Source of the DNA: Eledone cirrhosa
Lineage: Eukaryota
Direction: 5' to 3'
Assembly (NCBI GenBank): GCA_964016885.1
Contig: OZ024740.1
Location: forward strand, 105,462,001 to 105,526,000
DNA length: 64,000 nt
The translations under genes were made by a program, and so were the position numbers. This document shows positions 827 through 47,271 of this stretch, in pieces. Within the stretch, counting starts at the first letter, position 1, and each line of letters starts with the position of its first letter. The notes below the pieces were generated by a model, which had not been told where the DNA came from, did not search any database, and saw nothing but the letters and a program-made list of their open reading frames with translations.

Positions 827-879
<53 letters not shown>

Positions 880-1011
880 AGGAGGTTATAGTTCACTTGA
901 AGCATTGTGTAATGAGGTATAAACGTTTGAATATGTGTAATAAGGCCAAGACAATGCAGGTATGGACATAGAAAAAAGAATGCAATAGTGAAAGATATTG
1001 ATGTGAATTCG

Positions 1012-1078
1012 TCTTTCACCTTGAATTTATTTAAATGTCCTAAATTTTCGAGATAATATCTCTTCTTCGGAGGCAAGT
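1012..1078 (-). ncRNA. Hammerhead ribozyme-like motif (variant core) in PLE pseudo-LTR
   Basis: Minus strand: ttgcct-CCGAAGA-a-gagat/att/atctc-GAAA-attta...taaat-TC-a-aggtga. Confidence 0.6.
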
Positions 1079-1485
1079 AAAGGTCTCAAACCAGCGTCTT
1101 TAAATCTCTAGCCAAGCCATGCTGACCGGAAATAGTATAGGGTATCTGTTCTAACTCTAATATCAAAGAATTAAAATTAGGTGGATAAAGAGTAGTCTCC
1201 CTTTAAGAGGGGTTTGTTTAGGTTTTTTTTTTTTTTTTTTTTTAAATTAATTTTATATACGTGCCTGTATATGTGTGTGGGAGAATGCATGAAGGTGTAG
1301 GTATGTGGGTGTGTGTGTGTGAGTGTGGGAAGATAGGTCTAATCGTAAAAGTGGGGGGTAGGTGTTATCTGGTGTTAGAACTGGTTTTGTGTGTGTATGT
1401 GTGAGAGAGAATAAGTGGAGGTGTAAGCGTGTGTGTGTGCGCGTGCGTGTGTGTGGGGTGTGTAAAAATGGGGCTAGAGGCCCTA

Positions 1486-4062: not shown

Positions 4063-4199
4063 TGTGTAATGAGGTATAAACGTTTGAATATGTGTAATAA
4101 GGCCAAGACAATGCAGGTATGGACATAGAAAAAAGAATGCAATAGTGAAAGATATTGATGTGAATTCGTCTTTCACCTTGAATTTATTTAAATGTCCTT

Positions 4200-5360
<1,161 letters not shown>

Positions 5361-6040
5361 TAATTTTCGTTTCGTTTATATTTGTCGTTATTGAAACAAA
5401 TTCTATAATTTCACTGTCGGAAGAAGTTATTTTTCTTTCCATCTCCCACCACTACTAATACTTCAACCAGCCTTCTACGCTACTCCCTCTACATTTCATG
5501 CTCCCCTTCCCAACTCCTAGACTACACTCTGACTCCCCGCCTCCATCTCTCTACACATATCAACTAACACTTCAACCAGCTTCCTACGCTACTCTATATT
5601 CTGCCTCAATATTCCATAACTCCAACCAACTTTCGATATTACCCTTTCTACTTTCAACCTCCTCCTACCGCAAATACCCCTTAAACCAATTCCACCTACT
5701 ACTCCGTCTATTTTCCATCTCACACTGCAACTAATACTTGAGCCACTTTCCTATACAATTACAGGCAACTCTTCACCTACGTTAACGAATCATCGCTATT
5801 CCAAAATTGTTTGCCGCAAGGGATATAGAAATAAACAAAGAATGCTCCAGAATGGCCACAACGAACTCAATAGAAACAGTACAAGAGTGACAAAGAGTTT
5901 GTTTTAAAAAAAAACAAAAAAACAAACAAACAAAGAAACAACAACATCCCCTCATTTTCTCGTTCACTTATATATATATATATAATTGGTGTTGGATGCT
6001 TAAAGCATCCGTATACGGTATATATATATACCGTATGCGG

Positions 6041-6074
<34 letters not shown>

Positions 6075-6670
6075 ATATCATACATCGAGTGCTCAAACGG
6101 CCTACCGCATACATATATATATATATTCTAATAACCAACTTTTCACTATCTTATTAATTTGTGTTTGAGACACGTTGGCTGAGTACTTTTGACGGGAGCG
6201 GAAATATTAGTTATCTAATCTCCTGCCACCACGTAAAGTTTGTAAATCGGTGGCCAATCGGGGGACAGAGTTGTATCAGATTCCAGTTGCTCATCACTTT
6301 ACTGTGTCGGCCATCACAAACAGACTTAGCCGGCATGGATTGGAGTTGAATTCTGTCGACCGATTGGTTATTGATTAGGCGATACCCGCTGAGGAATCCA
6401 TATGTGCCGATTATGCATTGTTGCATAATATATGCAGACAGAGGGTGCAGTGCACCCTACTGCTGCATTAAATGTGGCCGAAACTCGAGTCAGGGAACTA
6501 CTATAGGCACCCGTTTACGTGTGTTGTATTGAAGCGAATAACTATGTGTATACTCTGGGAATGTATTCTACATTACCTATTGATTACGCTGAAATACAAC
6601 CGGTCCTGGCATTGATAAATATGCTGGGTCCGTCAACTCCTTATTGTTATTATTATTATTATTATTATTA

Positions 6671-9600
6671 CAGTTGCATTTATCTTGCTTTATGTTCATA
6701 CGAGTTATCACCAAGTCACAACCAGTGACCTCAAGAGACAACAAGGTCCGCCATGTTCAAGAAAGAACATACCTACTCACACATGCATTTTTAGTGTTTA
6801 GACTTGTGATGTACTTATATTGACAGAATCTTCCTTAGTATATGGGCAGTTCCCATTAGTACTATCTTTTGTATTTCTCCTATACGCGGGTTTCCTGGGA
6901 TTTGCGATAAGTAATCATTAGACCCCTTAGGTATCATTCCCAGAGCGCCTACAACCACTGGTATTGTTTTAGTTCTCAATTTCCACATTTTTCCAATTTC
7001 TATCTCCAGGTCCTTATACTTGCTCAATTTTTCAAATGTTTTTATAGATACATTCTTGTCTATTGGAACAGACATATCAATTAGCAGGCATACCCTCTTT
7101 TTAAAGTTCTTCAATATTATATCAGGTCTATTTGCATCTATTTTTCGGTCTGTTTGGATGTAAAAGTTCCACAAGATTGAGATGTGATCTTTTTCAAGTA
7201 TGGGAGGTGGTTGATGCTCCCACCAATTCTTTTGATGGGGCAGGCCAAAATGCTTACACATTATCCAATGTATGTATTGTGCAGCTCTGTCATGCCTGTT
7301 TAGGTATTCGGTTGGAGATATAGGACTGCACATTGAAATTATATGGTCAATGGTCTCTGGTTGTTTTTTGCATACACGGCATAATGGGCTGCATCCATTT
7401 TTTATTATGTTGGCTTGGTCATTTTTTTGTTGGCAGACACTGATCTTGTGCTGATATAATCAGTCCTTCAGTCTCTGATTTCAGTCCAGAGGATGCCAAC
7501 CACTGATGGGTTAAAGTTTTGTCAACATCAGGATTATTAACTCGCTCTGGGTATTTTCCATACAGAGGCTTTTCTTGCCATTTCTTAGCCAGTTTCTGTA
7601 GCAGTTCTTTCTTTGCAGTTACTTTTACCTGCTTTGCTTTTTCTGTGTTTTCCATTTCAGCAGTAAATGGGACTTCTGAAATTTTTAGTCCATTACTGTA
7701 TCTTTGTGCATCTTTTGTAATGGAATATGACCTTTTGATGCTTTCGTGTTTCAAAACGAGTTTGATCATCCAATCATGTGATTCCCTTAGATATGTAGAT
7801 AATCCAATTGTTGCAGTTTTCAACGCAATGTCTAACTGGATTAACCCACGTCCTCCTTCTTTCCTAGGGAGATATATTCTATCTATATCTGCCATAGGGT
7901 GATGCATTCTGTGCATGGTTAAGAGTTTTCGAATTTTTGTATCGAGCCTACGTATCTCTGTGCTTGACCAGTTGATGACATTGTAACTGTAGGTTACTAC
8001 TGGTATGGCAAGCGTGTTTATGGCATCGATCCTATTCCTTGCATTCAATTCCGTTCTTAAGATTGCTCTTACTCTGCGGTAACATTCCTTCCTTATCCTT
8101 TCCCTCATTGTCGAGTGCTTGATTCCGTCTCCTTCACAAAACACCTAGATATTTGTAAGTTTTTTCTTGATCAAGTTCTCTTATCACGTTCCCCCGATCA
8201 AGATTAATGTCTGAACTCTTCAGCAGCTTTCCTCTGGTGAACGTTGCTTTGGCGCATTTATGTAGTCCAAACTCCATTTTAATGTCATCACTGAACTGCT
8301 CCACAGTGGATAATAGCCCTTGCAATTGTTCATCATCTTTTGCAAATAGTTTCAGGTCATCCATGTAGAACAAGTGATTAATGGTTTTGTCATAGACTTT
8401 ATATCCATGTTTTGTTTCATTGAGCATTTTACTTAATGGTAAAAGTGCGATGCAGAATAAAAGCGGTGATAAAGAGTCACCCTGAACAATTCCACAATTA
8501 ATATTAACCCACCTCTCCAGCCTCCAGTGATTTTGTTTCACTATTCAAAAGGAGTGTCGTTTTCCATGTCTTCATACTGAATGACAAAAACCTCCTGACA
8601 ACGGGGGATATTTTGAAAATCTCTAAACATTTTTCAATCCAACTGTGTGGCAAACTATCGAATGCTTTTTTATAATCTATCCAAGCAATCGATAGATTTT
8701 TGTGTCTATTATGACAATCTTCCAGTATCATTTTGTTAACCAGAAGCCGATCCTTACAGCCATATGAGCCTCGTTTACACCCTTTCTGCTTAATGGGAAA
8801 TAGGTCATTTGTTATCAGGTGGTCATATGTGTATTCAGTTAGGACTGATGTTAACATTTTATACATTGTGGTCAAGCAAGTTATCGGCCTGTAATTTTTG
8901 GGATTGTTTGTCTCATCATTCTTCGGAAGCAGGAATGTAATGCCGTTAACTAGCCATGATGGTATCTTTTCTGGCTCCTTAACTATGTCATTGTAAAGTT
9001 TGGCTAACAGCTCATGAGATTCTGTGAAGGCATTTATCCAAAAGTTTTGTATTTTGTCTTTTCCTGGGGATTTCCATTTGCTGGTTTTTCTTAGAGCCAA
9101 GCGCAACTGTTCAACTGTTATATTTTCCCATATTTGTTCCTCAAGGTGAGCTGTATCTTTCATTTGTCTGTCTATCCATGGGGCATGTATGTTATGAACT
9201 TTTTCTTCGGCCCAGATCTTTTCCCAGAATTCTTGCACTTCCTCCTTGGGTGGTATTGATTTAGCAGTTATTGTTGACTTACCAATTTTTCTGTAGATGT
9301 TTCTTTGGTTGTTTTTGACATATTATTGTCCTTATAGAATCTAGATCGTTTTTCAAAGCGCCTTATACGAGCAGCTTTGGCCGACACTTTTTGCTTGATT
9401 ATTTCTATCAGCATGTCTATGTCACTTGTTGATTTTATACTGTTCTTTTTTTTCAATTTTTTAAGTTTAGTTTGTTTAACATGTTCACCTACTTTATAGT
9501 TTGTTAAAATTTCTATGTCAGATCGGAGAAGGTTTATTTGGCGATTGATGTTCTCTTGCCAAGTAGATTTCTTGTGGGAATTCCTTTGTTTTTTCATCTT

Positions 9601-10376
9601 CACTCCACACAAGTGAGTGGTGATTTTAGCCGATGCATAATAGAGATGATTTAAATCCGTAATGTTTAGTTTGTTTGTGATGATAATGTTTTTGAGAATT
9701 ATGTTAGTCTTGTGTATTATCTTTTGGTTCTGTTTGGAGTTCTGGATCTTAGGGAGGGTGTCTCGTTGCCCCATGTCAGATTCTTTCATTTTCATCCATT
9801 CGATCATAATTTCATCCTTCAAGTTGGCAAGTTCATTCTCATTCATTTCTTTATCATTTACGATCTCATTATTTTCATTTGGAGTTTCATCTTGAGCATG
9901 CACTCCCTCCACTTTTTCGATCCTTTCTTTAATTTGTTCTGTTGCCAGTGATTCCGCCCCAACCCTGGGATTCGAAGTGTTACAATCTACCTCGTTTTCA
10001 CTGACACATGTTTCATTTTCCCTTCGCTGACTTTGTGCTAATAGCTTGATCTGATCAATTTCTATATCAGTTAGTAACTTTTTTCTTACAATATTTCTTT
10101 GTATATTGGCTAGTTTGTTGCTGTCAATATAGCCTCTGTTTTCGGGATGTTTCTTTTTCCAGTTGATATATGTCTGTTCTGTATTCGATGTATTTGATGG
10201 GTAGTACATGGCAGTGTAGAAAGCCTCAAGGACTTCTTTATTATCTTCCCTTGACCATTTTTCTCTTTTTTTCTTTGGATTTCTTGGTGGTGAGCATGGA
10301 GGGCCAGTAGGAGTATTCCGGTTATGGGAGGTCTCCAGCTCCGAAGTGATGGGAAGTTTTGAACCATTAGCTGATT
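6671..10376 (-). mobile_element. R4/Dong-clade non-LTR retrotransposon, family A (frameshifted) in (TAA)n
   Basis: Consecutive ORF pieces 10367..6815 with KSPGKD, NYRPITCL, WIDYKKAFDS, QGDSLSP, HLFYMDD, GGRGL, CCHC finger, RHD and NRPDI..D RLE motifs; (TTA)n at both ends. Confidence 0.92.
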
Positions 10377-10390
10377 TTATTATTATTATT

Positions 10391-10465
10391 ATTTGTACCG
10401 TCCTGCATTGTCATGCACTGTCCTTAATGTCTACTTTATGTAAACCCTTGTGGTTAATAAAGAAA

Positions 10466-10467
<2 letters not shown>
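10391..10467 (+). mobile_element. Extreme 3' fragment of Tx1-like element
   Basis: Matches 24843-24919, ending taaacccttgtggttAATAAAgaaa-(ATT)n. Confidence 0.9.
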
Positions 10468-10503
<36 letters not shown>

Positions 10504-10520
10504 GTTATTGTTATTGTTAT

Positions 10521-13500
10521 TCCTTGAATCTCAGTCATTGATGTTGGTTAACTGGAAAGTCCGTTGGATTGAATATCAAGCCACTACCTGCAGCCTCAGA
10601 TATTCAGGACGTATCGGAGGGTTCTTGCTGTTCCAAGCAAGCATGCCTTTTGAAGCGTTCCAAAAAGCGTGAAGGGGCCGATTTTCTTTAACCATCCCTG
10701 GAAACCTTTGGAGATAGTCCCCAGTGCGCCTATGACAATCGGGATCACTTTGACTTCATGGCAGTTCCAAATCCTTTTCACCTCCCACTTTAGGTCCTGG
10801 TATCGGTTAATTTTCTCCCTCTCCTTCTCTTGCACTCTCGTGTCGAACGGGCAGGCCACATCCACAATCAGACACGATCTTTTTTCTTTGTCCACAACCA
10901 CCAGGTCAGGTCTATTGTGTTCCAGTTTTTTGTCCGTCTGTATCCTAAAATCCCAGAGCACCTTCACCTGATTGTTCTCCATCACCGCCTCTGGCCTATG
11001 CTCACGCCATTTCTCAGAATGTGGTAAATTGTTTACTTTGCACAGGTGCCAGTGGATCACCCTGCCCATCACATCGTGTCTCCAGCCCTTATAGTGGGTC
11101 TGGGCTAGGTGTTTACACTCGGACACAATGTGAGCCACAGTCTCCTCTCTCTCTCCACAGATCCTGCACAGTGGGCTAGCCTCCTCCTTGTAAATATGGT
11201 GCTTCAACCACTTCGTTTTGAGGGCCTGCTCCTGCGCAGCCATTAGCATTCCTTCTGTAGCCTTTTTGAGGTCTCCTCTTCTCAACCAGTTCCATGTCTG
11301 TGGATCTCTAAATTCAGTTTTCTCAAAGAAGGTACTATGAAGGGATTTTCCCTTAAGGCTGCTCTTCCTCCTTGATGTTATTTCCTCCTTGGACATCCCC
11401 TGGCCTACTGTCCCCTCCTTCAGTACAGTTCTGAGCATTGGCTCCTTACTATAGGTCACGTATTTGTATAGGTTGTTTTTCTCCATCTGAACACAGTCCT
11501 CTATGCTGATAAGACCTCTTCCACCCTCAGATCTCCTTAGGTAGAGTCTATCGACATCACTCCTCTTGTGGAACATGTTGTAGATAGTCAATAGCTTCCT
11601 AGTCTTCCTAACCATTTCTTTTTTTTCAGCAACATTCCATCTCAGAATTCCCGCACTGTACCTAATAATAGACACAGCTCGGGAATTTACTGCGCTTATG
11701 GCATTTCTGCTGTTCAGATGTGACTTCAATACGCTCCTTACTCTCCGAATGTATTCAGTTCTTAACAATTCCTTCATTTTTTTGTTCTTTATGCCATCAG
11801 CCTCCAGAACGCCCAAATACTTGTATCCTTCCTCCGAGTCAATTTCCTTTATCATCTCACCTGTTGGTATCTGGATCCCGTTACTTCTGCTCAACCTACC
11901 CCTCCTCATCACAATGACTCCACATTTACCAATACCAAACTGCATACATATATCACTGCTGAAAATACGGACAGTGTCAACAAGCACATCCAACTCCTTC
12001 TCACTTTTCCCGAAGAGCTTAAGATCGTCCATGAAGAGGAGGTGATTGATGGTAAGCTCTCCCCTTCCCAACTTGTATCCTGCTCTCACTTTTCGCAGCA
12101 TAATGGTCAAGGGCATCAGGGCAAGGACAAACAACAGAGGGGACAGGCTATCTCCCTGGAAGATACCTCTCTTGATCTTCACGCTTCCCAAGGGTACTCC
12201 AGTTGATGTCAACTCTGTCTCCCAGGACCCCAAACTCCTGCCTAGCAACTGTCTGATGTTATCTGCCACCCTGAAGATCTCCAGGCTTTTGGTGATCCAA
12301 GAATGAGGCACCATGTCAAATGCCTTTCTGTAGTCTATCCATCCCATGGCAAGATCAGTGTGTCTCCTCCTGCAATTCCCCATTACCATCTTATCAATAA
12401 GTAACTGGTCCTTTGTACCACCTGACTTCTTTCGGTATCCTTTCTGTTCGTCCGGTAACAAGTTGTTTGTGTGGAGGTGATGGTAGATTTCCTCAGACAC
12501 AATGCTCGTCAACAGTTTCCACATTACGGACAGACATGTGATAGGTCTATAGTTGGTAACATCATTACCCTTGATTCGGTCTTTCATTATCAGAACTGTG
12601 GTACCTTTTGTCAACCACTCTGGCACCTCACCCGACACCAAGCAGTCATTGAACATGGCCGTCAGCTTCGGGTGGAGGGATGTTAAATGTTTAATCCAAT
12701 ACCCCTGCACACCATCTGGGCCTGGTGATTTCCAGTTGGTTAGTTTTTTGGCCTGCCCCTTAAGAGTTTCAACTGTGATACTCAAATCAGTTTGTTGCTG
12801 TGCCTGCTCACCGATCTCCCTCTGTACTGTCTCAATCCACCCTGCCTGGACATTATGTCTAACATCCTGCTCCCATATTCCTCTCCAGAATGTTTTAGTT
12901 TGCTCCGCCCCAGGGATCAAGTCGTTGCCTCTTTCTTTCCCCTCAAGCTGTCCAAACAGCATCTTCTGGTTGTTGTCGAACATGCGGTTCTGTTTATACT
13001 GACTGACTCTGTTCTCGTATCGCCTGATTTTTGCACTCTTTGCTACAATGCGTTGCTTCAGTTCCTCTATGATAATATTTAGCTTTTTCCTCCTAGTTTT
13101 GTATTTTATTTCCAGTCTATTTTTAGTGCCTATGTTTTTTAGTGTCCCATTCAGTAGTGACTCAAGCTTTCCTATGTCATTTCTCATTTCCCCGATTTGC
13201 CCACTCAGTCGCTTCTTCCACCACGGCTCTGCTCTTTCTTGTCTGTTGTTTCCTCTCGCTTTTATACCAAGTAGTTTCCTCACCGTATTTGCTGTTGCTT
13301 TGAGGATATTGTTGCACTGGTGAAGGCTCCTCGCCTCAAGGTATGGGATGACTTTGTTTACCTTAGCTGTTGTTTCTTTTAACTTTTTCCGGTCTACAAA
13401 TCTTAGGTTCATAGGTCTCCCACTATCATTGTTCAATTCATCTACCACTAAATTTAGGATGTCAACCGAATCTTGTCCTAGCCCGTCAGCATTCATCTCC

Positions 13501-14173
13501 TCAGTGGCCGTATCTCTGTTCCAGGTATTATTTATCTCAGTATTCAGATCATTGTCTGCTTCGGGTGGTTCCTCCGTTCTCAGGACCTCTTCACCTTCAT
13601 TTCCCACTGGCTCGCTTGTCTGGCATACTACACCCGCCATCTCCAAGCCATTCTCTCTGCTCAGTTCCTCCAGTTCCAGCTCGCTTATCCACCCATTAGT
13701 TCTTATTACCCGAGCCTGCCCGGCCAATTTTTGTTCATCTAATTTAAATAAACCAATCTCGTTCCAGATGTTATGCATCCGTCTCCTGTAGCCCCTCTCC
13801 TTGGGGTCACTTTTCAGGTAACATTGCATAACAGTTCTATTCAATTCTTTCGTCCAGTTGGTTCTGGCCCCTTTCCTTCTTCTCCTTCCTCCAACATCAG
13901 CAGTATTTGTTGACAGTCAGGTTCCTGCTGCTGAGCCAGGGGGCACCTGCTGGGTGAGAGTCTGTCACATGACGTTCTAGTCTCCATTTCACCGTTATTC
14001 GAACTGTTTATGTTCGATATTTAAACACTCTTATCGAGGATTGGCGAATGTATGGTTACATAGCCATCTGTGGATCCGCCATTCCACTTGGCCCTTGTGT
14101 GGCATTATCACCACGCTGTATACGAACACACATAAACAAACAAACACACAGGCAGAAAGGGCCCCCAAAATGA
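10521..14173 (-). mobile_element. R4/Dong-clade non-LTR retrotransposon, family B, near full length, in (TAA)n
   Basis: 1082-aa RT-RLE ORF; flanked by (TTA)n at 10468-10520 and 14174-14227. Confidence 0.95.
10596..13844 (-). CDS. R4/Dong RT + CCHC zinc finger + restriction-like endonuclease
   Basis: KSPGPDG, NYRPITCL, WIDYRKAFD, GIFQGDSLSP, HLLFMDD, CRICGEREETVAHIVSEC, RHD, NRPDLVV..VDVACP..K..Y; true start uncertain because the frame is interrupted just upstream. Confidence 0.92.
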   Translation of the reverse strand: MNRTVMQCYLKSDPKERGYRRRMHNIWNEIGLFKLDEQKLAGQARVIRTNGWISELELEELSRENGLEMAGVVCQTSEPVGNEGEEVLRTEEPPEADNDLNTEINNTWNRDTATEEMNADGLGQDSVDILNLVVDELNNDSGRPMNLRFVDRKKLKETTAKVNKVIPYLEARSLHQCNNILKATANTVRKLLGIKARGNNRQERAEPWWKKRLSGQIGEMRNDIGKLESLLNGTLKNIGTKNRLEIKYKTRRKKLNIIIEELKQRIVAKSAKIRRYENRVSQYKQNRMFDNNQKMLFGQLEGKERGNDLIPGAEQTKTFWRGIWEQDVRHNVQAGWIETVQREIGEQAQQQTDLSITVETLKGQAKKLTNWKSPGPDGVQGYWIKHLTSLHPKLTAMFNDCLVSGEVPEWLTKGTTVLIMKDRIKGNDVTNYRPITCLSVMWKLLTSIVSEEIYHHLHTNNLLPDEQKGYRKKSGGTKDQLLIDKMVMGNCRRRHTDLAMGWIDYRKAFDMVPHSWITKSLEIFRVADNIRQLLGRSLGSWETELTSTGVPLGSVKIKRGIFQGDSLSPLLFVLALMPLTIMLRKVRAGYKLGRGELTINHLLFMDDLKLFGKSEKELDVLVDTVRIFSSDICMQFGIGKCGVIVMRRGRLSRSNGIQIPTGEMIKEIDSEEGYKYLGVLEADGIKNKKMKELLRTEYIRRVRSVLKSHLNSRNAISAVNSRAVSIIRYSAGILRWNVAEKKEMVRKTRKLLTIYNMFHKRSDVDRLYLRRSEGGRGLISIEDCVQMEKNNLYKYVTYSKEPMLRTVLKEGTVGQGMSKEEITSRRKSSLKGKSLHSTFFEKTEFRDPQTWNWLRRGDLKKATEGMLMAAQEQALKTKWLKHHIYKEEASPLCRICGEREETVAHIVSECKHLAQTHYKGWRHDVMGRVIHWHLCKVNNLPHSEKWREHRPEAVMENNQVKVLWDFRIQTDKKLEHNRPDLVVVDKEKRSCLIVDVACPFDTRVQEKEREKINRYQDLKWEVKRIWNCHEVKVIPIVIGALGTISKGFQGWLKKIGPFTLFGTLQKACLLGTARTLRYVLNI

Positions 14174-14224
<51 letters not shown>

Positions 14225-14227
<3 letters not shown>

Positions 14228-14591
14228 TCATTTGAAAAGGAAAATCAGGGTAGAGAGGGAAGTGCTCTCTTCCCAGCATTTTGTTGAAAGATGGGTGAGA
14301 GAAGCAAGTATTGCCCGAGTGAATGGGCCTTCTCTGAGTATGTGTCTGTAAATTAAAGGTGTAAAACTGGGAGAGGGCACTTGCCCTGGTGGTCAGGGCC
14401 ACTGTGGTCTTTTAATGGGCTTTCTCCACAAATGTCCCTCGGAAGTCTCCCCCCTATTGGGGAATTTTTCATTGTTTTTTTTTTCACTGTTTTTTTTTTA
14501 CACGCAGAAATGCCCATTTGTACTGTCCTGTATTGTCCTGTACTGTCCTTAATGTCTACTTTATGTAAACCCTTGTGGTTAATAAAGAAAG

Positions 14592-14592
<1 letters not shown>
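14225..14592 (+). mobile_element. 5'-truncated Tx1-like element (last ~370 bp)
   Basis: Highly similar to 24548-24919; (ATT)n on both sides. Confidence 0.92.
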
Positions 14593-14625
<33 letters not shown>

Positions 14626-17600
14626 GAAAGTGAAGCCACGCTTCTTATTGCCTCCAGTTTTTTTTTCAACAAGTTACCTCGTTTTCAACCGTTCTAAACC
14701 TTTTATTCAAGTTTTAAACTTGATAAAAGTTTAGAAGAAGTGACCCATCTAATACAGGGGTTCACTCGTAAATAATACGGCACCACTTTACGGGGTGTCG
14801 TATTGTGTAAAATTATTATTTGAAAAAAAAAATTTCTTCCAACATGGATAACACAAGAAAGAGAGAGAGCGCTGTCAGACAACACAGAGAGCGGGAGACT
14901 TTGTCAACATATTAACAAGACAGCGTTCTAGCGAAGGTAAATATAAAAGAAAATATTACGAAGGAAAAGAGGAACAATATCATTTTTAATGATATTGTTA
15001 CAGATTTAAAATTACCAAATATTTCTAACACAAACAACAACACCATCAATAACAATAGCAACAACAAAAATAACAGCGGTAAGGTCGAGAACGACAATAA
15101 CAATGACAATAACAACAGCCACAACAACGATAATAGTAGGAACAGTATCAACAAAAATAACAATAATAACAACAGCCACAATAACAGTAACAACAGCAAC
15201 AGTATCAACGAAAACAACAACAACAACAGCAACAACAGTACTAACGAAAACATCAACAATGACATCGATACCTGTACCAGCGATCTCAGCACCACCAGTA
15301 AGACCAGTAGCGGCAGCAATAGTGGTGCTGCTGAAAAAGGGACCACTTCTTTTGCTGGTTCGCCCGAAATATCGAAATAGTGTTAGTCACAGAGGAGGAG
15401 ATGGCAGTCGCAAGGGCCATGGTGACAAGAAACACTAATAGAGTCTCCCTGAAACCTCCACCCGATTTTTTTAAGGACCAGCAGCTACGGACGGTGACTT
15501 ACCGCACCGTAAGCAAAATTTCACATCAAGTGGAGAGAGCCATGGAGGCTCAAATCCCAAAGGCCTTGGGGTGCGTCTGGGCGCGCAAAACCCACATCAC
15601 CTGAGGCAGAAAGTACGCCACAGTAGACGTACTTTTCGCCACCCCCCAAGAAGCGAAGTCTCACTCTTTGGAAACCCTAAAGAGTGAGGAGATAGTCTTG
15701 GTGCTCTCCTACTGCGGGCAGAAAATTGTGAAGGTCAAAGTGACCCAGGTCCCACCCGACGTACCCATACCTTGGCTGGCTGCGTCCGTCCTTGCTGGAA
15801 TCGAGGACAGGACGACCATGCTGCAAGTAGAGAAAATAGGGAGAGAGAACTGGTCAGGTATAGGCATGCAAATGCTTATACAAACTGACCAGGAATGTAT
15901 CGACGCTATCCCCAATATCATAGACCTCTAGGAAGAACTCCAATTTTCTATAAGCGTGGAAGGAAGACGGCCAAAATGTTATCTCTGTGGGTCAAAGGGT
16001 CACCTCAGGGCCTTTTGCCCGCAGAAGACAGCGAAGAAGACGGCCTCTCTCCTTCCAATACATGGTCCGCTGCTACCAAGAGCAGGGCAGGCAACAAACG
16101 CAGAAGCCCCTCCCACAGTGAGTAGGAGGGCAACGTCCGTGGCACCCGTACCAAGGCCACAATAACTAAAGCAGCAGCATCAGTGGCAGCAACACCAGTA
16201 GCTACATTTGCAGTAGCTGCACCAGCAACAAAATCGTCGGAGAGGGCTCCACTACCACCACCAACAGCCGTGGAGCACATACCCCTTCCAGACGCCACGG
16301 AATCCGACATGGAGTCTGAGGCGGGAGTGAAGTGGAAAACGGTCTGCCGCAAAAAAGAAAAAAGAAAAAAACCCTTAGCTTCGCCCTCCAAAAGCGAAGG
16401 CACACAAAGAGGGGTAAAGGCTGCAAGGAGACTTGCAGCAACACCACCACCATCACCATCACCACCACAAGCACCACCGCCAACAACAACCACACCACCA
16501 CCAGCATCACCAAAAAACACCAACAACGCAAACACAACAAAACACACACACCCAACAGCAACAAGAAGAAAACAGCAACAAAATCACCCCCTCCCCCCAA
16601 AAGTACACAGTCATAAACATGGCAAATAAAGAACTCATACAACATATGAAGCAGCTCACAGACATCACAGAAAAAAACTACTACACCCCCACCAACACCA
16701 AATTCAAAATAGAACAGTACAAATTTTAATACAAAAATTCCCCAACGCAGTTGGAGACTTCAGAGGGTCGGTTACCAAGAGGATATACACTGACATCCTC
16801 TTGAAAACACCCATGACCAGCCAAAGGGACGGTTCCATTGTCCCTTCACCACACGATCAAGGTAAGTGACCCTTTCTCACTTGCCCCGTTTCTCATCCAA
16901 CATTGCTGTACTTAGAATAGGCAGTATAAATGCACGTGGCCTGGGGTCATCATGGAAGCAGGGTCACCTGCTCAACGACCTCAGGTCACTAAACATAGAT
17001 GTGGTGGCCATCAGCGAGACCATAATCACCGAAGTACGAATCTTCTTCGGCGGCTACGATGTATACGCATCTCCCAGCCGTCCAGAATCGGGGGGAGGGG
17101 TTGCCGTCCTTTTTCGGAGAGGCTTCGATCTTCCTAGACCCAGAAGGTAAGTTGGTGGTGCTGGACGTGACCGGCAGCGAAGGCAATGCTTTCAGGCTAG
17201 TAGCCGTCTACGCCCCAACATGGGCAGGACGGCCAGATTTCTTCAGACGTCTAGAGACCTTTCTTGGAACGTCCCGCTCTTTAGTGTCAGTGGGAGACTG
17301 GAACGGTATCTTGGATGCACGCTGGGATTGTGTGGGGCTAGTGGATAGGGGAGGAGGGTGCAAGAGCCTCACCAACCTGCTCAGACGTTTTGAACTGTCT
17401 GACAGGTATCGGCTGGATCACCCGAATGTGCCAATGTGGACATGGACAAACCGCATCGTGTCCTCCAGATCGTATCTCGATAGGGTATTCTGCAGAGAAC
17501 TAGATAAGGCTAGTATAAGTTGTCCACAATTTAAAATAGTCGACTACACAGACCACAAATTTGTGATCTGTGAGATCGACATAGACAGACTTCATAGACA

Positions 17601-18497
17601 AGGGCCCGGTTACTAGCAGCTGAACGTGTCTTTCCCGGCGCGCAAAGCCTACAGAGACCGGATTATCGTATTAGTTAAGAGGGCGTTGTCGGGAGCGGTC
17701 GTCAACAACAGGTGGGGGTTCGTCCTGAAAAGGGCAATTAAAGTAGAGTCGATTAGGTTTAGCAAAGGACTAGTGATAGAGGAAAATAGAGTAGAGGGAG
17801 AGCTAGTCAGAAAACTAGAAGAGGCGTTTAGGAAAGGCATCGCAACCGACGTGCTTGCGGCGAGATTGGAACTCGACCAATTCTTCAACGCAAAACACGA
17901 AGGCTGCATTGTCAGAGCTAGAGCGCGTGTCTGAAACACGAGGGGACAAAAGCCGTCCAATGGGCCCAGGTGCCAGAGGCGTGACGTGGCAACAAAGCCA
18001 CAATTCGGCCTTTGTCTGACCAAAACGGGTGCGTGCTGCTCGAACCCGAGCAGATGTGTGAAGCTTTTCAGCAGCACTTTGCTGAACTGTTCGGGAGCAG
18101 CGGCGGCCCGGATCGGGGCATGGACTTCAGTGCATACCTCGACGGACTGCCTCGGCTCTCGACGATCGCAGCACAATGTTGCGAAAAGCCAGTGAAATAC
18201 GGGAAGCGATGGCTAACTGCATGAGGGGTAAATCGCCAGGTTTGGATGGTCTGCCCTACGAGCTTTATGCATTTATGCCAGACTTGTTTGGTGACCTCTT
18301 GGCAGACGTCTACTGCAACTGGCAACAAAACGGGAGCATTCCCCGTTTTGTGAGCCGGGGAGCGGTGGTGCTGCTGAGAAAAGACCCAAACAAGGGGGAT
18401 GTTATCGATAATTTCAGGCCTATAACCCTGCTAAACGCAGAGTTCAAGATTTTGGCCAAGGTGTTAGCAACCAGGTTGGCGCTTGTCGTCAAGGGTC
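14626..18497 (+). mobile_element. Tx1/L1-like element, 5' part (ORF1 + APE + start of RT), decayed and 3'-deleted
   Basis: ORF1 knuckle CYLCGSKGHLRAFC; ORF2 SINARGL, VYAP, GDWN, LDR, TDH, KSPGLDG, NFRPITLLN; stops and frameshifts. Confidence 0.92.
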
Positions 18498-18499
18498 CT

Positions 18500-18955
18500 T
18501 ACGCTCCTTACTCTCCGAATGTATTCAGATCTTATCAATTCCTTCATTTTTTTTGTTCTTGATATCATCAGCCTCCAGAACACCCAAATACTTGTATCCT
18601 TCTTCAGTGTCAATTTCCTTTATCATCTCACCTGTTGGATTCCGTTGCTTCTGCTCAATTTACCCCTCTTCATCACAAGGACTCCACTCTTACTAATACC
18701 AAATTGCATACATATATCATTGCTGAAAATACGTACAGTGTCAACAAGCACATCCAACTCCTCACTCTTCCCGAAGAGCTTAAGATCGTCCATGAAGAGG
18801 AGGTGATTGATGGTAAGCTCTCCCTTTCCCAACTTGTATTCTGCTCTCACTTTTCGCAGCATAATGGTTAGGGGCATCAGGGCAAGGACAAACAACAGAG
18901 CGGACAGACTATCTCCCTGGAAGATACCTCTCTTGATCTTCACGCCTCCCAAGGA
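18500..18955 (-). mobile_element. Internal RT fragment of Dong family B
   Basis: Aligns to 11731-12195; GIFQGDSLS..HLLFMDDLKLF. Confidence 0.92.
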
Positions 18956-18967
18956 TTCTCGAGCTGA

Positions 18968-19019
<52 letters not shown>

Positions 19020-19227
19020 GGCGACCTACGTAGTAAATCGTATCATCGTGAGCTCCGCAAAGGTTTGTTATTTCCGTTTGTTAAAAATTGCCATTTATGG
19101 AAAATTTTATTGTTAACCATATATAAGCGCACATACATTGTTTTCCGAAAAGGACACCCAAAAAGATTGGGGCCTTGTGCCCAAAATTTAAACTTTTATT
19201 ATTATCAAAAAATTTCCTTGAAAAAAA

Positions 19228-21215
19228 ATGGTTAATTCACCTCTGCACCAAGCAGCTGAGAGCCTTTCTCACAAATTAACACCTCACACCGACACCACCA
19301 TTGTAAATGTTACTACGTTTGCCAACACTAAACAAAATATAAGCACTAGCAATATTTTTAATTTGTCTCAGGCAGACATTCATTTCCCGCCATTACCAAT
19401 GACTGCAGGTGTTAAAGCCTCCACCACCACCACCACCGCGACAACCACCACCCCCACCGCCACCGCGACAACAGAAACAAAAGAAGAAAAAAATAAATTA
19501 ACTCGTGATGTCGAAATGAAGTCAAGCAAAATGGACTCTTCCCCAGCAAAGACGACTGACGTCACCAGCACCACAACTGAAACTAAAATTAATATTAACA
19601 CAAATAACGATAGCAACAACAACAACAATGACATTATAAAAACGACCCTCAGTTTTGCCAGAGTAGCAAAACAGTTCGAAGCATATAACGGTAACTCAGG
19701 ACGATTTAGAAAATGCCAAACAACTGGTAAAGAGAGATGGGTACAGGGTCAGCCTCACCCCCCACCTAATAAAATGGAGCATCGGCGCCTATGCACCGTG
19801 TCGTATCGAACAATAAATGTAAAATCGCGCCGAGTGGAACGGGCATCCGAGTCCCAAATCCAAAAAGCTTTGGGACATGTGTGGGCAAGAAAAACCCACA
19901 TCAGACGTGGGCAGAAGTATGGAACCGTGGACGTGTTCTTTGAAACACCAGAGGAGGCTAGAGAACACTCCATGGCCCCATTAAGAAGTGACGACTTCAC
20001 ACTCGTCCCAAGCTATTGTGGCCAGAGACTCGTAAAGATCAGGGTGACCCACGTTCCACCGGCTATCGAAATTCCCTGGCTAATAGCGGCCGTCCTCGCC
20101 GGCATCGAAGCCAACACAAAAATAATAGCAATAGCAAAAGAAAAGCAGGAGAACTGGTCCGGATCTGGGATGGAGCTCCTGATCCAAGCGGACCAAAAAA
20201 GCAGTGAGGAGATCCCAGAGGTAATAGACCTCACTGACGGCAGCCACCTCACGGTAATTGTCGAGGGCAGAAGACCTAGGTGTGTCGTTTGTGGTGAAGG
20301 AACCCACCTAAGGGCTTTCTGCCCTCAGGCTAAAAGGTTAGGCCACCTCTCCTACCCACCCCAGTGACACAACCATCAACACCACCAGTAGCAGAGATGG
20401 CAGCAACAACTGTAGCAGCAACAACAGAACCAACTATAACAGCAACAACCCCAGCAACAGTAGCGAAACCAACACCACCACCACCACCAGCAAAACCAAC
20501 ACCACCACCACCCAACACTTCAGAACTAGCGCCAGCGCCTACACCATCCACCACGCCACAACCAAAACTAACGCCTGTGGAGGATTTTCCACTCCCCGGC
20601 CTATCACAACTGGAGACAGATTGTGACGACGAGGAGTCGGAAACGATATCCGGAAAAAAAAAGAAACCAAAAAAGAAAAAATTCTCTTCCTTCCCCCTCC
20701 AAAAACAAAATACAGAGGGAAACAAATAAATTAAGAAACAAAAAAGTTAGGACAGATATGCCACCATCCACACCAGCATCACCAACCCCATCACCACAAA
20801 CACCAACACCATCACCATCATTAACCCCAACACCACCATCACCTACACCACAAAAGTCACCAAAATGCGAAACAGAAACAAACCCACAACAAACGCAAAC
20901 AAAACAAAACAACCAAAACGATACACACTACACAGCATCAAATTTGAACAACAAGCAATTATTACACTACATCCAACACAACACCAGCATCACAGAAAAA
21001 GACTACACAACGACCCCAAAATTCACACCACCTCCACACATACAAATCACTCGCATCACACAGAAAACGTACATGACACTAAAAAAAAAAATTCCCCAAA
21101 GACATCGGAGACTTCCGACAAGCACTCTCCAGGAGGATTTATAAGGACATCCTTCCTGAGGAGGCCACAAGCAGTGAAAAGGATGGAAAAGCCGTCCTTC
21201 CCCTACGAGAAGTAA
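19228..21215 (+). pseudogene. Tx1-like ORF1 (RNA-binding, CCHC knuckle, Pro/Thr-rich tail), frame-disrupted after 20367
   Basis: CVVCGEGTHLRAFC; homologous to 15400-16870. Confidence 0.8.
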
Positions 21216-21254
21216 GGTAAGTGGTCTTTCTCATCTTTTCCACTCCTTTTCAAC

Positions 21255-24200
21255 ATGACCTCACTCAGAATAGGCAGCATAAATGCGCGTGGCTTGGGGT
21301 CTTCATGGAAGCATGGCCACCTGCTCAACGACCTCAGGTCACTAAACATAGATGTAGTGGCCATCAGCGAGACCAGAATCTCCGAAGCACAGGCTTTCGC
21401 ACCGATCTTCGGCGGCTATGATGTGTACGCATCTCCCAGCCGTCCGGGATCGGGGGAGGAGTTGCTGTGCTTTTTCGGAGAGGTTTGGATCTTGCCATAC
21501 GGGCCATCTTCCTGGACCCAGAAGGTAAGTTGGTGGTGCTGGACGTGACCAGCGGAGACAGGCAAGCTTTCAGGTTAGTGGCCGTCTATGCCCCGACAGG
21601 AGCAGGGCGGCCTGATTTCTTCCGGCGTCTGGAGACCTTTCTTGGAACGTCCCGCTCTTTAGTGTTAGTGGGCGACTGGAACGGGATCTTAGATGCACGC
21701 TGGGATTGTGTGGGATTAGTGGATAGGGAAGGAGGGTGCAAGAGTCTCACCAACCTGCTCAGACGTTTTGAACTGTCTGACAGGTACCGAATGGATTTCC
21801 CGAATGTACCAATGTGGACTTGGACAAATCGCATAGGGTCATCCAGATCATATCTAGATAGAGTATTTTGTAGGGAAATAGATAGGTCTAGCATAGGCTG
21901 TCCACAATTCAAGATAGTCAGCTACACGGACCACAAATTCGTGATCTGTGTGCTTGACTTAGACAGGCTTCATAGACGAGGACCCGGCTACTGGAAGCTA
22001 AACGCGTCCTTACCAGTGCGCAAGGCCTACAGAGACCGGATTAGCGAACTAGTTAAGCGGGCGTTGACGGGGACCATCGTCAACAACAAGTGGTGGTTTG
22101 CTCTGAAAAGAGCAATTAGAATAGAGTCCATTAGGTTTAGTAAGACTTTAGCAATAGAGAAAAATAGAGCAGAGGGAGAATTAGTTAGAAAATTAGATGA
22201 GGCGCTTAGCAAAGGCATCGCCACCGACGTACTTGCGGCGAAATTGGCCCTTGACCAATTCTTCAATGCAAAGCACGAAGGCTGCATTGTCAGAGCTAGG
22301 GTGCGTGCTCTCAGACACGAGGGGACGAAAGCCGTTCAATGGGCCCGAGTGGCGGAGGTGCGTCGTGGCAACAAAGCCACGATCCGGTCTTTGGTGGACC
22401 ACGACGGGCGCATGCTACTGGATCCCGGGCAAATATGTGAAGCTTTTCAGCGACACTTCGCTCAACTGTTCGGGGGCAGTGGCGGGCCGGATCGAGGGAT
22501 GGACTTTAGTGTCTACCTCGACGGACTGCCGCGGCTTTCGGCCACTGAGGCGGAGTGTTGCGAAAAGCCGATAACAACCGCTGAAGTACGGGATGCAATG
22601 ACTGGTTGCACAAGGGGTAAATCGCCTGGTTTGGATGGTCTGCCCTATGAACTTTACGTACAAATGCCAAACTTGTTCGGAGGCCTCATGGCGGACGTCT
22701 ACTGCCACTGGCAACAGAACGGGAGAATTCCCAGCTCTGTGAGCCGAGGAGCGATGGCGCTGCTGAGAAAGGATCCGAACAAGGGGGATAACACAGATAA
22801 CTTTAGGCCCATAACTCTGCTAAACACAGAGTTCAAGATTTTGGCCAAGGTGCTAGCAAAGAGGTTGGTGCTTGTCGTTGGTGGTCTGGTGGGAGAGGCA
22901 CAGACATGCGCCATTCCCGACAGATCCATCCACGACAACCTCCACCTCATGCGATACATCGTAGAGAGGGTAGCTAGGGAACCAGGCACGGGTGGGTCTT
23001 TGATCAATTTAGATCAGTCGAAAGCTTTCGGTAGGGTCGACCATCGTTACCTATCGGCAGTCCTGAGGGCGGCTGGCTTTGTGCTCGTCTTCAGAGGCTG
23101 GATCGCTGCCATGCACAGCGACATCTGCTCTGTGGTGAGAGTGAACGGTCACCTTTCGGAACCGTTCAACATCATGCGCTCGGTCCGCCAAGGATGTCTC
23201 CTCTCGTCCCTATTGTACGTATTGACTCTCGAGCCATTACTGCACAAACTGGAGACGTTGAGGGGGGGTCCCGCGCGAACTAGGATGCGGAAGATCCGTG
23301 TCAGCATATGCCAACGAGGTCACTGTAGTGGTGTCGAACGCCAAACACATCGAGGCGATCGGCACTACACTAAGAGAATACGAACCGGTGACAGGAGCAA
23401 TGATCAACCAGGAAAAGTCAGTGGTCCTGCAGCTCGGCACCTGGAGAGGCAAGTCCATGCCGTCCAACAGCGTCGTCGGGCGCTGGACGGACGGACCGGT
23501 TAAATTGCTAGGGGTCTGGTTCGGTCCAGACCTCCAGACGGACAAAAACTGGGACGAGGTGACGAGCAGGGTGGCTTCTCTCACCCAGAAATGGGCGGAG
23601 AGGAAGCTATCCCTGAAAGATCGAGCGGAGGTGGCGAATGCGTACATCGCATCAGTCATCTACTACCGCCTGACCGTCGTACCTTGTCCTAAGCCCCGCC
23701 TGACTGCGCTGGAGCGTTTGCTCTTTCGCTTCTTGTGGAAGGGACGCGCTCCGATGGTCAGGCGGTCCATCTGCTGTCAACACCCGCTACGTGGAGGGCT
23801 GGGCATGCCGTGGCTGATGATGCGCAGACACGCGCTCAGGCTACGACATCTCCACCTCTTCCTCGACGGTGATCAGGTGTGGTCGCCGCATGCTAGACAC
23901 GTTTTTCCCCAGCTCGTCTCCTTGACGGAGCTGCAGTCCTGGGTCAAGCGAAGACCGAGAGGGAGCGCTTGGAGACTGGAATGTCTTCAGGCGCTCACAG
24001 CCCTCGACCAATCGGGCAATGTGATCGGTGGAAACTCCACCTTGGCGTTCTATAGGGGATTAGTGGAGGGGAAGAGCGACGACGTACTTGGAGAAACTTT
24101 AGGCGTCGACGAAAATCAACTAGCCAATCTCTTCGGAAGGACTTTCGGGCCGGGGCCTATAGACAACTTCCAGAAATCCCTGGCCTGGCAGTGCTACCGG

Positions 24201-24674
24201 GGTGCTTTGCCAGTTCGGGATAAACTTTACAGGCATGGAGGTGCCGTCAGCCGGGCATGTCCGAGATGCGCGTAGGACGCCGAAACCGTCCTGCACGCAC
24301 TCGTCCAGTGTCCGAGCATTGCTGACTTGAGGGTTTATGTCGAACACCTGCTGTCACGTGTGGGACGGATCCAGCTATCAGCTGAGTCCATCGTGAGGAT
24401 TGCCCCGCCCTCTTCCTTTAGCCGGGAAGGGCAGGCAGTTTTTATCTGTCTGGTGGCCATGGCGAAAGAGATAGTATGGTGGACACGTTTGAAAGGGCTG
24501 AAGACGAGCACTTACCTCTTCGGTGATGCCCTGATTAACTTTTTCAAATTTCATCTGCAACGGAAAATCAGGGTAGAGAGGGAAGTGCTCTCTTCCCAGC
24601 ATTTTGTTGAAAGATGGGTGAGAGAAGCAAGTATGGCCCGAATGAATGGGCCTTCTCTGAGTATGTGTTTGTAA
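21255..24674 (+). pseudogene. Tx1-like ORF2 (APE endonuclease, RT, C-terminal Cys finger), inactivated
   Basis: GSINARGL, GDWN, TDH, NLDQSKAF, VRQGC, YANEV (expected YADD), CPRC..ET..H...C; two frameshifts and one stop. Confidence 0.92.
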
Positions 24675-24941
24675 ATTAAAGGTGGAAAACTGGGAGAGGG
24701 CACTTGCCCTGGTGGTCAGGGCCACTGTGGTCTTTTAATGGGCTTTCTCCACAAATGTCCCTCGGAAGTCTCCCCCCCTATTGGGGAATTTTTCTTTGTT
24801 ATTTTATTTCATCCTCTGTTTTTTTTACACGCAGAAATGCCCATTTGTACCGTCCTGTATTGTCCTGTACTGTCCTTAATGTCTATTTTATGTAAACCTT
24901 TGTGGTTAATAAAGAAAACATTATTATTATTATTATTATTA

Positions 24942-25006
24942 CAGTTGCATTTATCTTGCTTTATGTTCATACGAGTTATCACAAAGTCACAACCAGTGAC
25001 CTCAAG
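24942..25006 (-). mobile_element. 65-bp 3' end of Dong family A
   Basis: Near-identical to 6671-6735. Confidence 0.9.
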
Positions 25007-25091
25007 TGAAGGGAGCTAGTTGGTCAGTCGTGCTCTCTGTCTCTGATTTTTCGGACCCATAGTTTTTACATATTCCTTTGTTATATTTCGA

Positions 25092-25149
25092 ATACCTGAT
25101 GATATCACCGGATTCATATAGAACCCGGTCATTGAAGTGATCATAGTAT
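25092..25149 (+). ncRNA. Type I hammerhead motif (GAAA>GAAG)
   Basis: atac-CTGATGA-..accgg..ccggt..-GAAG-tgatca-TA-gtat. Confidence 0.7.
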
Positions 25150-26777
25150 AATAAACCTTCCCAGGATTTACACCAGTCCAGCCTCCTATTATTTTTATTT
25201 ATAATTAACTCCGTATTCGCACCCCCAACTACACAAATGAAGACGGGTGAACTGCACAATATTACACCAAGATTGACCATACGGAATGACCAATTCTATC
25301 CAGTGGTGAACCAACAAACCTAAAGAAATAATGCTCCAATAATGTTGAACACTTCCAAATGTAATATTGAACAGCGGCACTGACTTCAGTGTACAGCTAC
25401 CGCCAGCTTGGGATTAACTGATCTACTTACCATTCGGATTTTGACTGCTCTATCTACCGCCCACCCGATGCTGCTTCCCTGTCGGGAATATTCGACAAAA
25501 TTCTACGTATTATACTAAAACATGTATTGTATTGACTGAATTCTCTACTCTATACCTAAGGACATTTTTTGTGACTCACACTGAATTCGGAGACCCGAAC
25601 TTTACACTAGGTACCACCTGTACCATTCCATCTCTTCCATCCTCTATATCTATATGTACAACCTATATTATCTTACTACAACTTGATCTATATTTTATTT
25701 CCCCTTTGCTCTGATTCCTCCGATATGTTCTTATATACTTCCGTCTTACTACATCACTACCCTAGCTATGAAGACGTTTTATTTATGTATTTTACTTTTT
25801 ACTTTTATTAGTTTATTAATGTATTTTTATCAATGTATTCTTAATTTTTGTATTTTATCTTTGTATCCTGCTTTTATTTATTTGTAACTTTCCTTACTCA
25901 GGTCATTATGCACCTTTCATAGCCCCCTACCCAACAAAGAACCACACTACTTATAACCCAGACTAACTGGGACTTTAAAATAATTATAGTCTATTTGCAC
26001 TCTTTATTGGGTTTTGCTACCTTCGATTGATGTGGTGGCTTTTCCCGGCTGCGCGGTGGGCGCTCGGAAAGTTCAGCCTTCCTTGAGTGTTTGGAAAAAT
26101 AAATTTTCCCTCTTTCGGTAAACGAAATTATTAGGAGCGGGTTGCCTTGCCCCGCCGCGCCGCCTGTTTTGACCGCCATATTATACTTATACCTATAAAC
26201 TCTAGGCTTAGGCATAACTGTTAGCTGTATCATGCCTCTACTGGCACGTAAATAAACCCCTCATGTGTGAATTAATAGTATTCGTTTGGTATTGACGATG
26301 GCCTGTCGAAATTGTAGACTTCCCGCTAGCACACCCGGGGCCTAGGGTAGCTACGTTTCTAGAGTACTCGGAAAAATTAATTTCCATTTCTTTCGCTGGA
26401 CGATACCACTCGAAACTGGCTGACACGTGGTTAGGAGGTGCTGGCTGGGTTTCACAATCGAAGGCTTTAATCTTTATCCCACCCTGATATCTTATCGAGA
26501 TTAACTTTTTCATATAAGACTCTCACTGTAAGTTCATTAAATAATTAATTAATTTATTTTTTTAATTTATTTTCCAATTTTCAATTTATTATTTTTTAAT
26601 TTGATTTCATCCTATAACTCGTAACATAAGTTTAACGTTCCAATTTTCGGTTCACACATTAGACCATACAGACACCCATTATATATGTCTTTGTTAAAAT
26701 ATAGATTCTTTAGAATAACATTTTTCGCGGCGTTTTCTATTTTGACTGTAGTGTGACCCTTACGCTGACTTCTTTCT

Positions 26778-26811
<34 letters not shown>

Positions 26812-27007
26812 CCTTTTTTATTCTTTGACGGAGAGGTGGTAGTACATTATAAGCCTTCGCCCCCTCACCAGATGGTCATTAGCAGATCGAGTAGCCATCA
26901 CTTTGCGGGCGACTGGCCGAGGTGAAGGCAGCTAGTTGGTCAGTCGTCCTCTCTGTCTCTGATTTTTCGGACCCATGGTTTTTACATATTCCTTTGTTAT
27001 ATTTCGA

Positions 27008-27065
27008 ATACTTGATGATATCACCGGATCCATATGGAACCCGGTCATTGAAATGATCATAGTAT
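27008..27065 (+). ncRNA. Type I hammerhead motif (C3>T)
   Basis: atac-TTGATGA-..accgg..ccggt..-GAAA-tgatca-TA-gtat. Confidence 0.7.
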
Positions 27066-27131
27066 AATAAACCTTTCAAGGATTTACACCAGTCCAGCCT
27101 CCTGTTATTTTTATTTATATATATATATATA

Positions 27132-43691: not shown

Positions 43692-43819
43692 ATATATATT
43701 ATATATATATAATAACAATAATATGGAGTAACGTTAAAAGCACTGGTGTTAGTGCACCATTAAATTCTCAGTGCTAAAATGTCGAATCTAAATTGTTCAA
43801 AAAATAATGAGTAAGCTGG

Positions 43820-45085: not shown

Positions 45086-45319
45086 TTGGCTAGACTCATA
45101 CCCACCTAACCACACTACCTCATTCTCCCTGACCCCTTGTCTGTCCAGATACACTTACCATTCCCTGAACTCCCACTTTCTTCATCCGACCATTTTACTA
45201 CCAGATAAATTCAACCAAAGCTAATGGCCTATTTTTTTACACCTTACAAATTTTACTACACCACCGGAAAGGCTTGCTGAACACACAAGCCGAAACCGTT
45301 TGACACCGAGGTCAGGATT

Positions 45320-46562: not shown

Positions 46563-46569
<7 letters not shown>

Positions 46570-47202: not shown

Positions 47203-47271
<69 letters not shown>

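Follow-up and report, generated by a model that had tools for sequence, protein, structure and literature searches.

An antiparallel array of R4/Dong-type and Tx1-like LINEs at (TTA)n tracts in Eledone cirrhosa

A 64-kb stretch of the genome of Eledone cirrhosa (hereafter the window; 64,000 nucleotides of contig OZ024740.1, at 105.46-105.53 Mb on this 443-Mb contig of a 3.0-Gb assembly) carries at positions 6641-25009 an array of eight pieces of long interspersed nuclear elements (LINEs). Four of them, on the minus strand, are of the R4/Dong type with a restriction-like endonuclease (RLE), and four, on the plus strand, are Tx1-like with an apurinic/apyrimidinic-type endonuclease (APE). The array is likely a LINE stack of two kinds, with (TAA)n on the sense strand of Dong and (TTA)n on that of the Tx1-like elements, formed by priming at nicks on opposite strands of one repeat, with repeat left on both sides of every insertion. 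A strand-specific repeat is present at the 5′ junctions of both kinds, the neighbours are antiparallel, and truncation points and ages differ from copy to copy. The opposite-strand nicking itself we infer from the standard target-primed mechanism, in which the first nick is made on the strand opposite to the sense strand of the element. The array is one among many of the same type in the genome and is not exceptional.

The order and strands of the pieces given by the first-pass annotation, with all four RLE copies minus and all four APE copies plus, were confirmed across 6641-25009. Its statement that some 18 kb are devoid of unique DNA also stood, as all but 2 bases of this interval match other loci of the genome. 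Runs of at least four TTA units occur seven times in the window, always inside the array, and there is no plus-strand (TAA) run among them. Regarding its claim of (TTA)n at the junctions, the seven tracts were found as described, but two junctions have no TTA, one near 18497, at the fusion of Tx1b with a Dong fragment, and one at 25009, the right end of the array. Both look like later deletions. From left to right, the features are as follows.

6126..6640, unstranded: left anchor, a dispersed repeat of unknown class, the right end of which normally passes into a T/A-rich tail that is short and mostly ttatta(ta)n
6641..6670, plus: (TTA)10 tract at the 3′ end of DongA
6671..10376, minus: DongA, RLE LINE; RVT_1, with CCHC and PD..D..K motifs in translation; frameshifted open reading frame (ORF), 5′ untranslated region (UTR) partly missing
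10377..10393, plus: (TTA)5 tract at the 5′ junction of DongA
10394..10467, plus: tip of a Tx1-like element, final 74 bp, with AATAAA
10468..10521, plus: tail-to-tail tract, the TTG variant units of which are the inherited DongB tail
10522..14173, minus: DongB, RLE LINE with intact 1106-aa ORF, 5′-truncated by ~0.9 kb; reverse transcriptase (RT), CCHC finger, PD..D..K
14174..14227, plus: (TTA)18 head-to-head tract
14228..14592, plus: 5′-truncated Tx1-like copy, final 365 bp
14593..14625, plus: (TTA)11 tract
14626..~18497, plus: Tx1b, of a second Tx1-like family, with an intact 5′ end and the 3′ part lost by deletion; weak Exo_endo_phos match
~18498..18967, minus: internal fragment of a DongB-related subfamily, 91% to DongB; 5′-truncated at the tract, 3′ part lost in the deletion fusing it to Tx1b
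18968..19019, plus: (TTA)17 head-to-head tract
19020..24919, plus: Tx1a, full-length two-ORF APE LINE, frameshifted; AATAAA just before the tail
24920..24941, plus: (TTA)7 tail-to-tail tract
24942..25009, minus: DongA tip, final 68 bp, cut off without TTA
25007..27119, unstranded: right neighbour, a dispersed repeat with ~200-bp direct repeats, joined at an internal point by the DongA tip

As 3′ tails may be encoded by the elements, 5′ junctions were chosen as the test of targeting. With an element-only query, Tx1a 5′ ends were found to follow the repeat, TTATTATT, in 29/29 other loci, and exact TTATTATT lies upstream in 46/46 distinct Tx1a junctions, a set which includes loci from a query containing TTA. 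In the case of Tx1b, 15 of 19 loci start after a tract of at least four units. Both proportions lie above the figure used to define a target-specific family, i.e. a target shared by over 20% of flanks (PMC4494074; this and the other papers are cited from their accessible parts). Six more Tx1-like 5′ ends start after ...TTATT, and at least eight distinct Tx1-like 5′ ends share the (TTA)n target. For DongB, Dong sequence, full-length or truncated, reaches a sense-strand tract of at least three TAA units in 30/30 loci (that of the window included, and one of them through a Dong piece that is rearranged). In young copies whose 3′ ends are intact, the sense-strand tract was observed at 63 of 70 resolved 5′ junctions of Dong and at 22 of 31 junctions of Tx1a, the opposite polarity at none of either, and the background rate of the tract is 61/21040 windows. 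Four additional Dong copies were set aside, their sequence having run into UTR missing from the library. The 5′ phase of Dong is loose, TAA followed directly by GGG being exact in 7/20. The proposal that copies elsewhere would have (TTA)n or (TAA)n at 5′ junctions in fixed orientation, opposite for Tx1 and Dong, is thus borne out.

The same rule was observed where the tracts rather than the elements were taken as the starting point. The background samples (80 of 10 kb, in which Tx1-like elements make up ~5.5% and Dong ~1.5% of the bases) contain 49 tracts, of which 17 are flanked by Dong or Tx1 (3 of them on both sides), and 19/20 element ends at these tracts fit the strand rule. Scaled from three in 0.8 Mb, doubly flanked tracts would number, roughly, on the order of ten thousand genome-wide. 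Twenty 20-kb regions around Tx1a copies, namely the first 20 matches after the window's own copy, gave two apparent exceptions among 95 tracts, both of which are TAA/TTA polarity switches with each element abutting its own polarity. The TAA-to-TTA switches join two arrays back to back (L271+L272 near 5975-6049 and L281+L282 near 7937-7994, oriented on Tx1a). Dong is present in the same chain at 15 of the 20 other Tx1a loci, the chains attaining 15 kb inside the sampled 20 kb. Dong was found across the 5′ tract of Tx1a at 17/29 loci, compared with 3/49 background tracts (p = 5e-7), 3/27 long background tracts (p = 3e-4) and 2/13 pure runs of at least 10 units. Dong lies across the 3′ tract of Tx1a in 14/27 cases vs 5/49 in the background, and Tx1 across the 5′ tract of DongB in 12/29 vs 5/49. 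Co-clustering of the two kinds, a check suggested with the first-pass annotation, was therefore above background in three of four tests. Age and region may add to this enrichment, since the focal loci are the best-scoring and hence the youngest copies.

That choice of focal loci is itself one of several points that weigh against the interpretation given above. The background samples, though evenly spaced, come mostly from the four largest contigs, and 32 of the 49 background tracts have neither Dong nor Tx1 on either side. The fourth co-clustering test showed no enrichment of Tx1 beside the 3′ tracts of DongA (6/28 vs 6/49, p = 0.34, after exclusion of two loci, that of the window and one that overlaps another). 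Tract-less junctions amount to 7/70 for Dong and 9/31 for Tx1a; most resemble deletions, interruptions by a short interspersed nuclear element (SINE) or chimeras, and some are unexplained. Wrong-sense cases comprise one degraded fragment in the background set and a Dong piece beside a DongA 3′ tract, apparently a short inverted 5′ piece between short inverted repeats (L111). Moreover, the array gained no confirmation from reads: none of the reads or contig pieces of four runs mapped on 5500-14300 spans the locus, which counts for misassembly, and no empty allele was seen among them.

A mechanism can be proposed from the flanks. Tx1 would first nick the TAA strand, TTATT before and ATTATT after the element fitting a T^AA cut, while Dong would first nick the TTA strand, TAA on either side of the element fitting TTA^TTA. 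The phase of both nicks is uncertain because element and repeat share letters. The T^AA step is the preference of the L1 endonuclease. As the insertion would keep repeat on both sides, two targets would be offered to the next element. The 3′ tract is supplied in part by the element's own tail, given that identical TAACAA variant units open 22 of 26 DongB1 3′ ends. The seeds are often other repeats' short TTA tails, and later deletions fuse neighbouring elements and remove tracts.

Alternatively, the strand might be set mainly by RNA-DNA pairing, with both endonucleases nicking AT-rich repeat loosely and insertion being productive only if the primer pairs with a (UUA)n or (UAA)n tail. This would agree with the repeat at the end of both kinds, with the TAACAA units of DongB1 tails, which imply a tail templated by RNA, and with the loose 5′ phase of Dong. 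It would also agree with a common SINE with an ATT tail, the insertions of which are located at short ATTAT motifs and show duplications of 10-20 bp (noted by eye in many matches, uncounted). Tail pairing, however, accounts for the 3′ junction only, and the one exact repeat phase at all 46 Tx1a 5′ ends is unlike the SINE, the 5′ flanks of which are mostly non-repeat. On the basis of this exact phase and this contrast, we favour strand recognition by the endonuclease, as far as sequence can tell, and consider tail pairing as the main determinant rather unlikely, though it could contribute to the choice of strand. It has also to be asked where the long tracts come from. They could mostly have been created by slippage at insertion junctions from targets of two or three units, the array growing its own repeat. 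In favour of this, the left repeat in its other copies offers no more than a short tail as seed, background tracts beside an element are longer (median 12 vs 4.5 units), and several Dong 5′ junctions have (GAA)n or (TTC)n expansions. Nevertheless, long tracts exist without elements, as 11/19 pure runs of at least 8 units have neither kind on a given side, and compound repeats also arise through ordinary replication slippage. We regard slippage at the insertion junctions as the main source of the tracts as very improbable, and it would alter their origin while leaving the strand rule unchanged.

The idea that there is no targeting at all, and that the elements accumulated passively in gene-poor regions, by segmental duplication or through misassembly with the tracts being merely tails, is largely refuted and hardly credible. 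From the abundance of both kinds in the sampled bases, chance neighbours are indeed expected at times, and the failure of any read or contig to span the array is in its favour. Tails, though, cannot give a sense-strand repeat at variably truncated 5′ ends with zero opposite cases, and the tails-only explanation was rejected on that ground. The elements flip at polarity switches, and both truncation points and divergences are distinct: 69 different truncation points were counted among 74 Dong copies, and the copies in the window are 93-99.5% like their best other genome copies. Duplication and misassembly are disfavoured by these differences, for which reason a segmental duplication origin was rejected, and serial insertion of eight independent LINE copies would fit the varied truncation points and ages. 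A telomeric origin was rejected as well, the array lying in an interstitial triplet repeat, at 105 Mb on a contig of 443 Mb. Beyond targeting by two endonucleases, the two lineages could be imagined to build each other's niche, each leaving fresh pure repeat that the other prefers to ordinary tracts. Thousands of antiparallel stacks would then result by positive feedback, and antisense RNA, made when transcription of one element runs on into its inverted neighbour, would turn them into reciprocal small-RNA sources regulating both lineages. This extension is tentative, and we think it improbable as a whole.

The Dong copies were characterized from their translations and termini. DongB, the youngest copy in the array (99.5% identical to its best other genome copy), has the only intact ORF of the array, 1106 aa in length, with a match to RVT_1 (E = 4e-23), a C-terminal CCHC finger and the PD..D..K endonuclease motifs at residues 917, 1003 and 1034; it has no Exo_endo_phos match. 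Its best solved relatives are R2 proteins, and a second aligned stretch covers the R2 endonuclease region. DongA follows the same plan with a frameshifted ORF and is 98.3% identical to its best other genome copy. The loss of 5′ UTR is ~0.9 kb in DongB and at least 0.6 kb in DongA. In reads and contigs of the four runs, both Dong copies show a roughly fivefold drop in depth from 3′ to 5′, as predicted by 5′ truncation. Both junctions of the Dong elements have (TAA)n on the sense strand, by which membership of R4/Dong is judged, and anatomy and target together point to this clade. No relative named Dong or R4 was present among 120 listed relatives or their cluster members. A diverged Myb/SANT-like domain without zinc fingers is described for the N-terminus of R4/Dong (PMC7998251), and a Pfam scan gave no match at the Dong N-terminus here.

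Ribozymes resembling that of hepatitis delta virus (HDV) are known for silkworm Dong and R4, their universality not being established. At the Dong 5′ ends, Rfam gave no match to an HDV-like ribozyme, and a simple motif scan of the first 400 nt detected nothing L3-like; the folding z values are 0.4 and 1.2. The first 330 nt of DongA and DongB are 78% identical despite far-apart ORFs (5′ termini, e.g., L147 and L058), and this region may be an internal promoter, as no ribozyme motif was found there. At L129, L140, L149, L052 and L055, the tract is separated from the Dong 5′ end by a (GAA)n or (TTC)n expansion, which suggests slippage at the junction. Outside the array, an old DongB-related fragment of 72% identity lies at 43770-45088 (+), with no TTA/TAA tract of four units nearby.

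In the case of Tx1a, ORF1 has one CCHC knuckle and ORF2 the order APE, RT and zinc finger. Exo_endo_phos, RVT_1 and zf-RVT scored above cut-off in two natural copies (L275 and L299), and the best solved relative of Tx1a ORF2 is L1 ORF2p. Tx1a is 98% identical to its best other genome copies. Tx1b, 83% identical to Tx1a over 1.6 kb, is least like its other genome copies (93%). The database relatives that have a name are a protein from coral with the label Transposon TX1 and ZCCHC3-domain proteins of fish, 29-31% identical. ORF1 itself gave no Pfam match to ZCCHC3, and a profile comparison with the fish relatives was not significant (E = 0.25). Anatomy, target and database matches thus suggest the Tx1 clade. 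Metagenome relatives of the Tx1-like ORF2 are distant (22-40%) and had the tract in 0/37 loci, which is uninformative on the breadth of specificity. A Tx1c-type 5′ half was found with a Tx1a-like ORF2 (90-95%) in L273+L274, L293+L294 and L299+L300, intact 1161-aa ORF2 frames being present in two of them. These chimeras suggest that ORF1 was exchanged between families.

The repeats that border the array are themselves abundant. The left-anchor repeat has 3126 candidates in the genome, and in the 19 other copies examined it ends in a T/A-rich tail that is short and abutted by neither Dong nor Tx1. The left anchor is likely the seed of the array, and this seed was probably short. A Helitron-like helicase fragment lies beside one copy of the left repeat and was not taken as its identity. 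For the right-neighbour repeat, with 1870 candidates, the flanks of 11 other matches were compared, and the right anchor of the array appears to have been lost by deletion. The single founder microsatellite on which the first-pass annotation had built the array could not be established, since the left seed is another repeat's short tail and the right anchor is lost; it is plausible but unproven. Its reading of the sites as safe harbours is conjectural. The repeat at 25007-27119 often occurs in inverted pairs elsewhere and has no Rfam match, and we take it to resemble Penelope terminal repeats. Two Penelope-like elements (RT and GIY-YIG) with terminal repeats are present in the window at 876-4202 (-), with an open 903-aa frame, and at 46563-50400 (-). 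In an Rfam scan of window positions 1-30000, all matches were below threshold and to simple repeats.

The abundant SINE mentioned above is ~187 bp long, and its duplications often start with ATTAT (at L073:1777-2000 in the orientation of Tx1a, as well as at many background loci). It seeds TTA tracts and joins arrays mostly in the Tx1 sense. Judged by eye, the 25 bases at its end are similar to the Tx1-like 3′ end. In two Tx1a copies (L267+L268 and L293+L294) a SINE occupies the same internal ATTAT site, Tx1a position ~1918-1937 (window 20937-20956), one SINE being full-length and the other truncated. Either insertion was recurrent or one inherited insertion was later truncated.

In kind, the parts of this system are known. 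Dong has been reported in (TAA)n for the majority of insects, mollusks and cnidarians, and the Dong elements of silkworm, mosquito, snail and ostracod are like those described here in having a single ORF, RT with RLE, and (TAA)n insertion (PMC7998251, PMC3812793). Silkworm Dong self-cleaves (PMC3774820), whereas an HDV-like motif was not found at the 5′ end of the present elements. In the accessible parts of the Dong literature searched, interleaving of APE elements with known Dong is not mentioned. Dong-R4 and L1-Tx1 are abundant in cephalopods (PMC13282606, PMC8967140) and in Octopus vulgaris are among the recently active families (PMC13282606, Table 1); the accessible passages do not mention targets or, for O. 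vulgaris, nesting. The TTA/TAA pattern may explain part of such repeat landscapes.

Among APE elements, microsatellite-specific Tx1 families are Kibi in (TC)n, Koshi in (TTC)n and the crocodilian families in (TTCC)n/(TTTC)n (PMC4494074), and Tx1-1_ACar is telomere-specific (PMC4494074, PMC10088271). All are, like the Tx1-like elements here, two-ORF APE LINEs of the L1 group with a simple-repeat target. The present elements differ from these families in having (TTA)n as target, with the strand that they read being the one opposite to that of Dong. The mechanism of microsatellite targeting was called not well understood by a 2013 review (PMC3812793). Here the target is a triplet that survives insertion, and hence the strand and phase of cleavage, and the shares of endonuclease and RNA tail, can be tested with short oligonucleotides.

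SART/TRAS are alike in that two families form arrays in opposite orientation in one tandem repeat (PMC10088271). Both are R1-clade APE elements at telomeres, in contrast to RLE and APE elements in dispersed interstitial tracts; the array thus works like SART/TRAS and is not a member of that system. Utopia (RLE) and Keno (Tx1, APE) in U2 small nuclear RNA genes likewise show an RLE element and a Tx1-clade APE element converged on one target (PMC4640811). They share the same genic site with identical 3′ flanks, whereas the target in the present case is periodic, outlasts insertion and serves the two kinds from opposite strands. Neither a (TTA)n-specific Tx1 family nor antiparallel Dong/Tx1 arrays were found in the literature searched, Repbase and most subscription papers lying outside the search. 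Thus Dong in (TAA)n, microsatellite Tx1 and RLE/APE convergence each have precedents, and it is their combination that was not found in print. With it, (TTA)n is added to the targets of Tx1-like LINEs, and an example is gained of RLE and APE elements that have converged, from opposite strands, on a single repeat.

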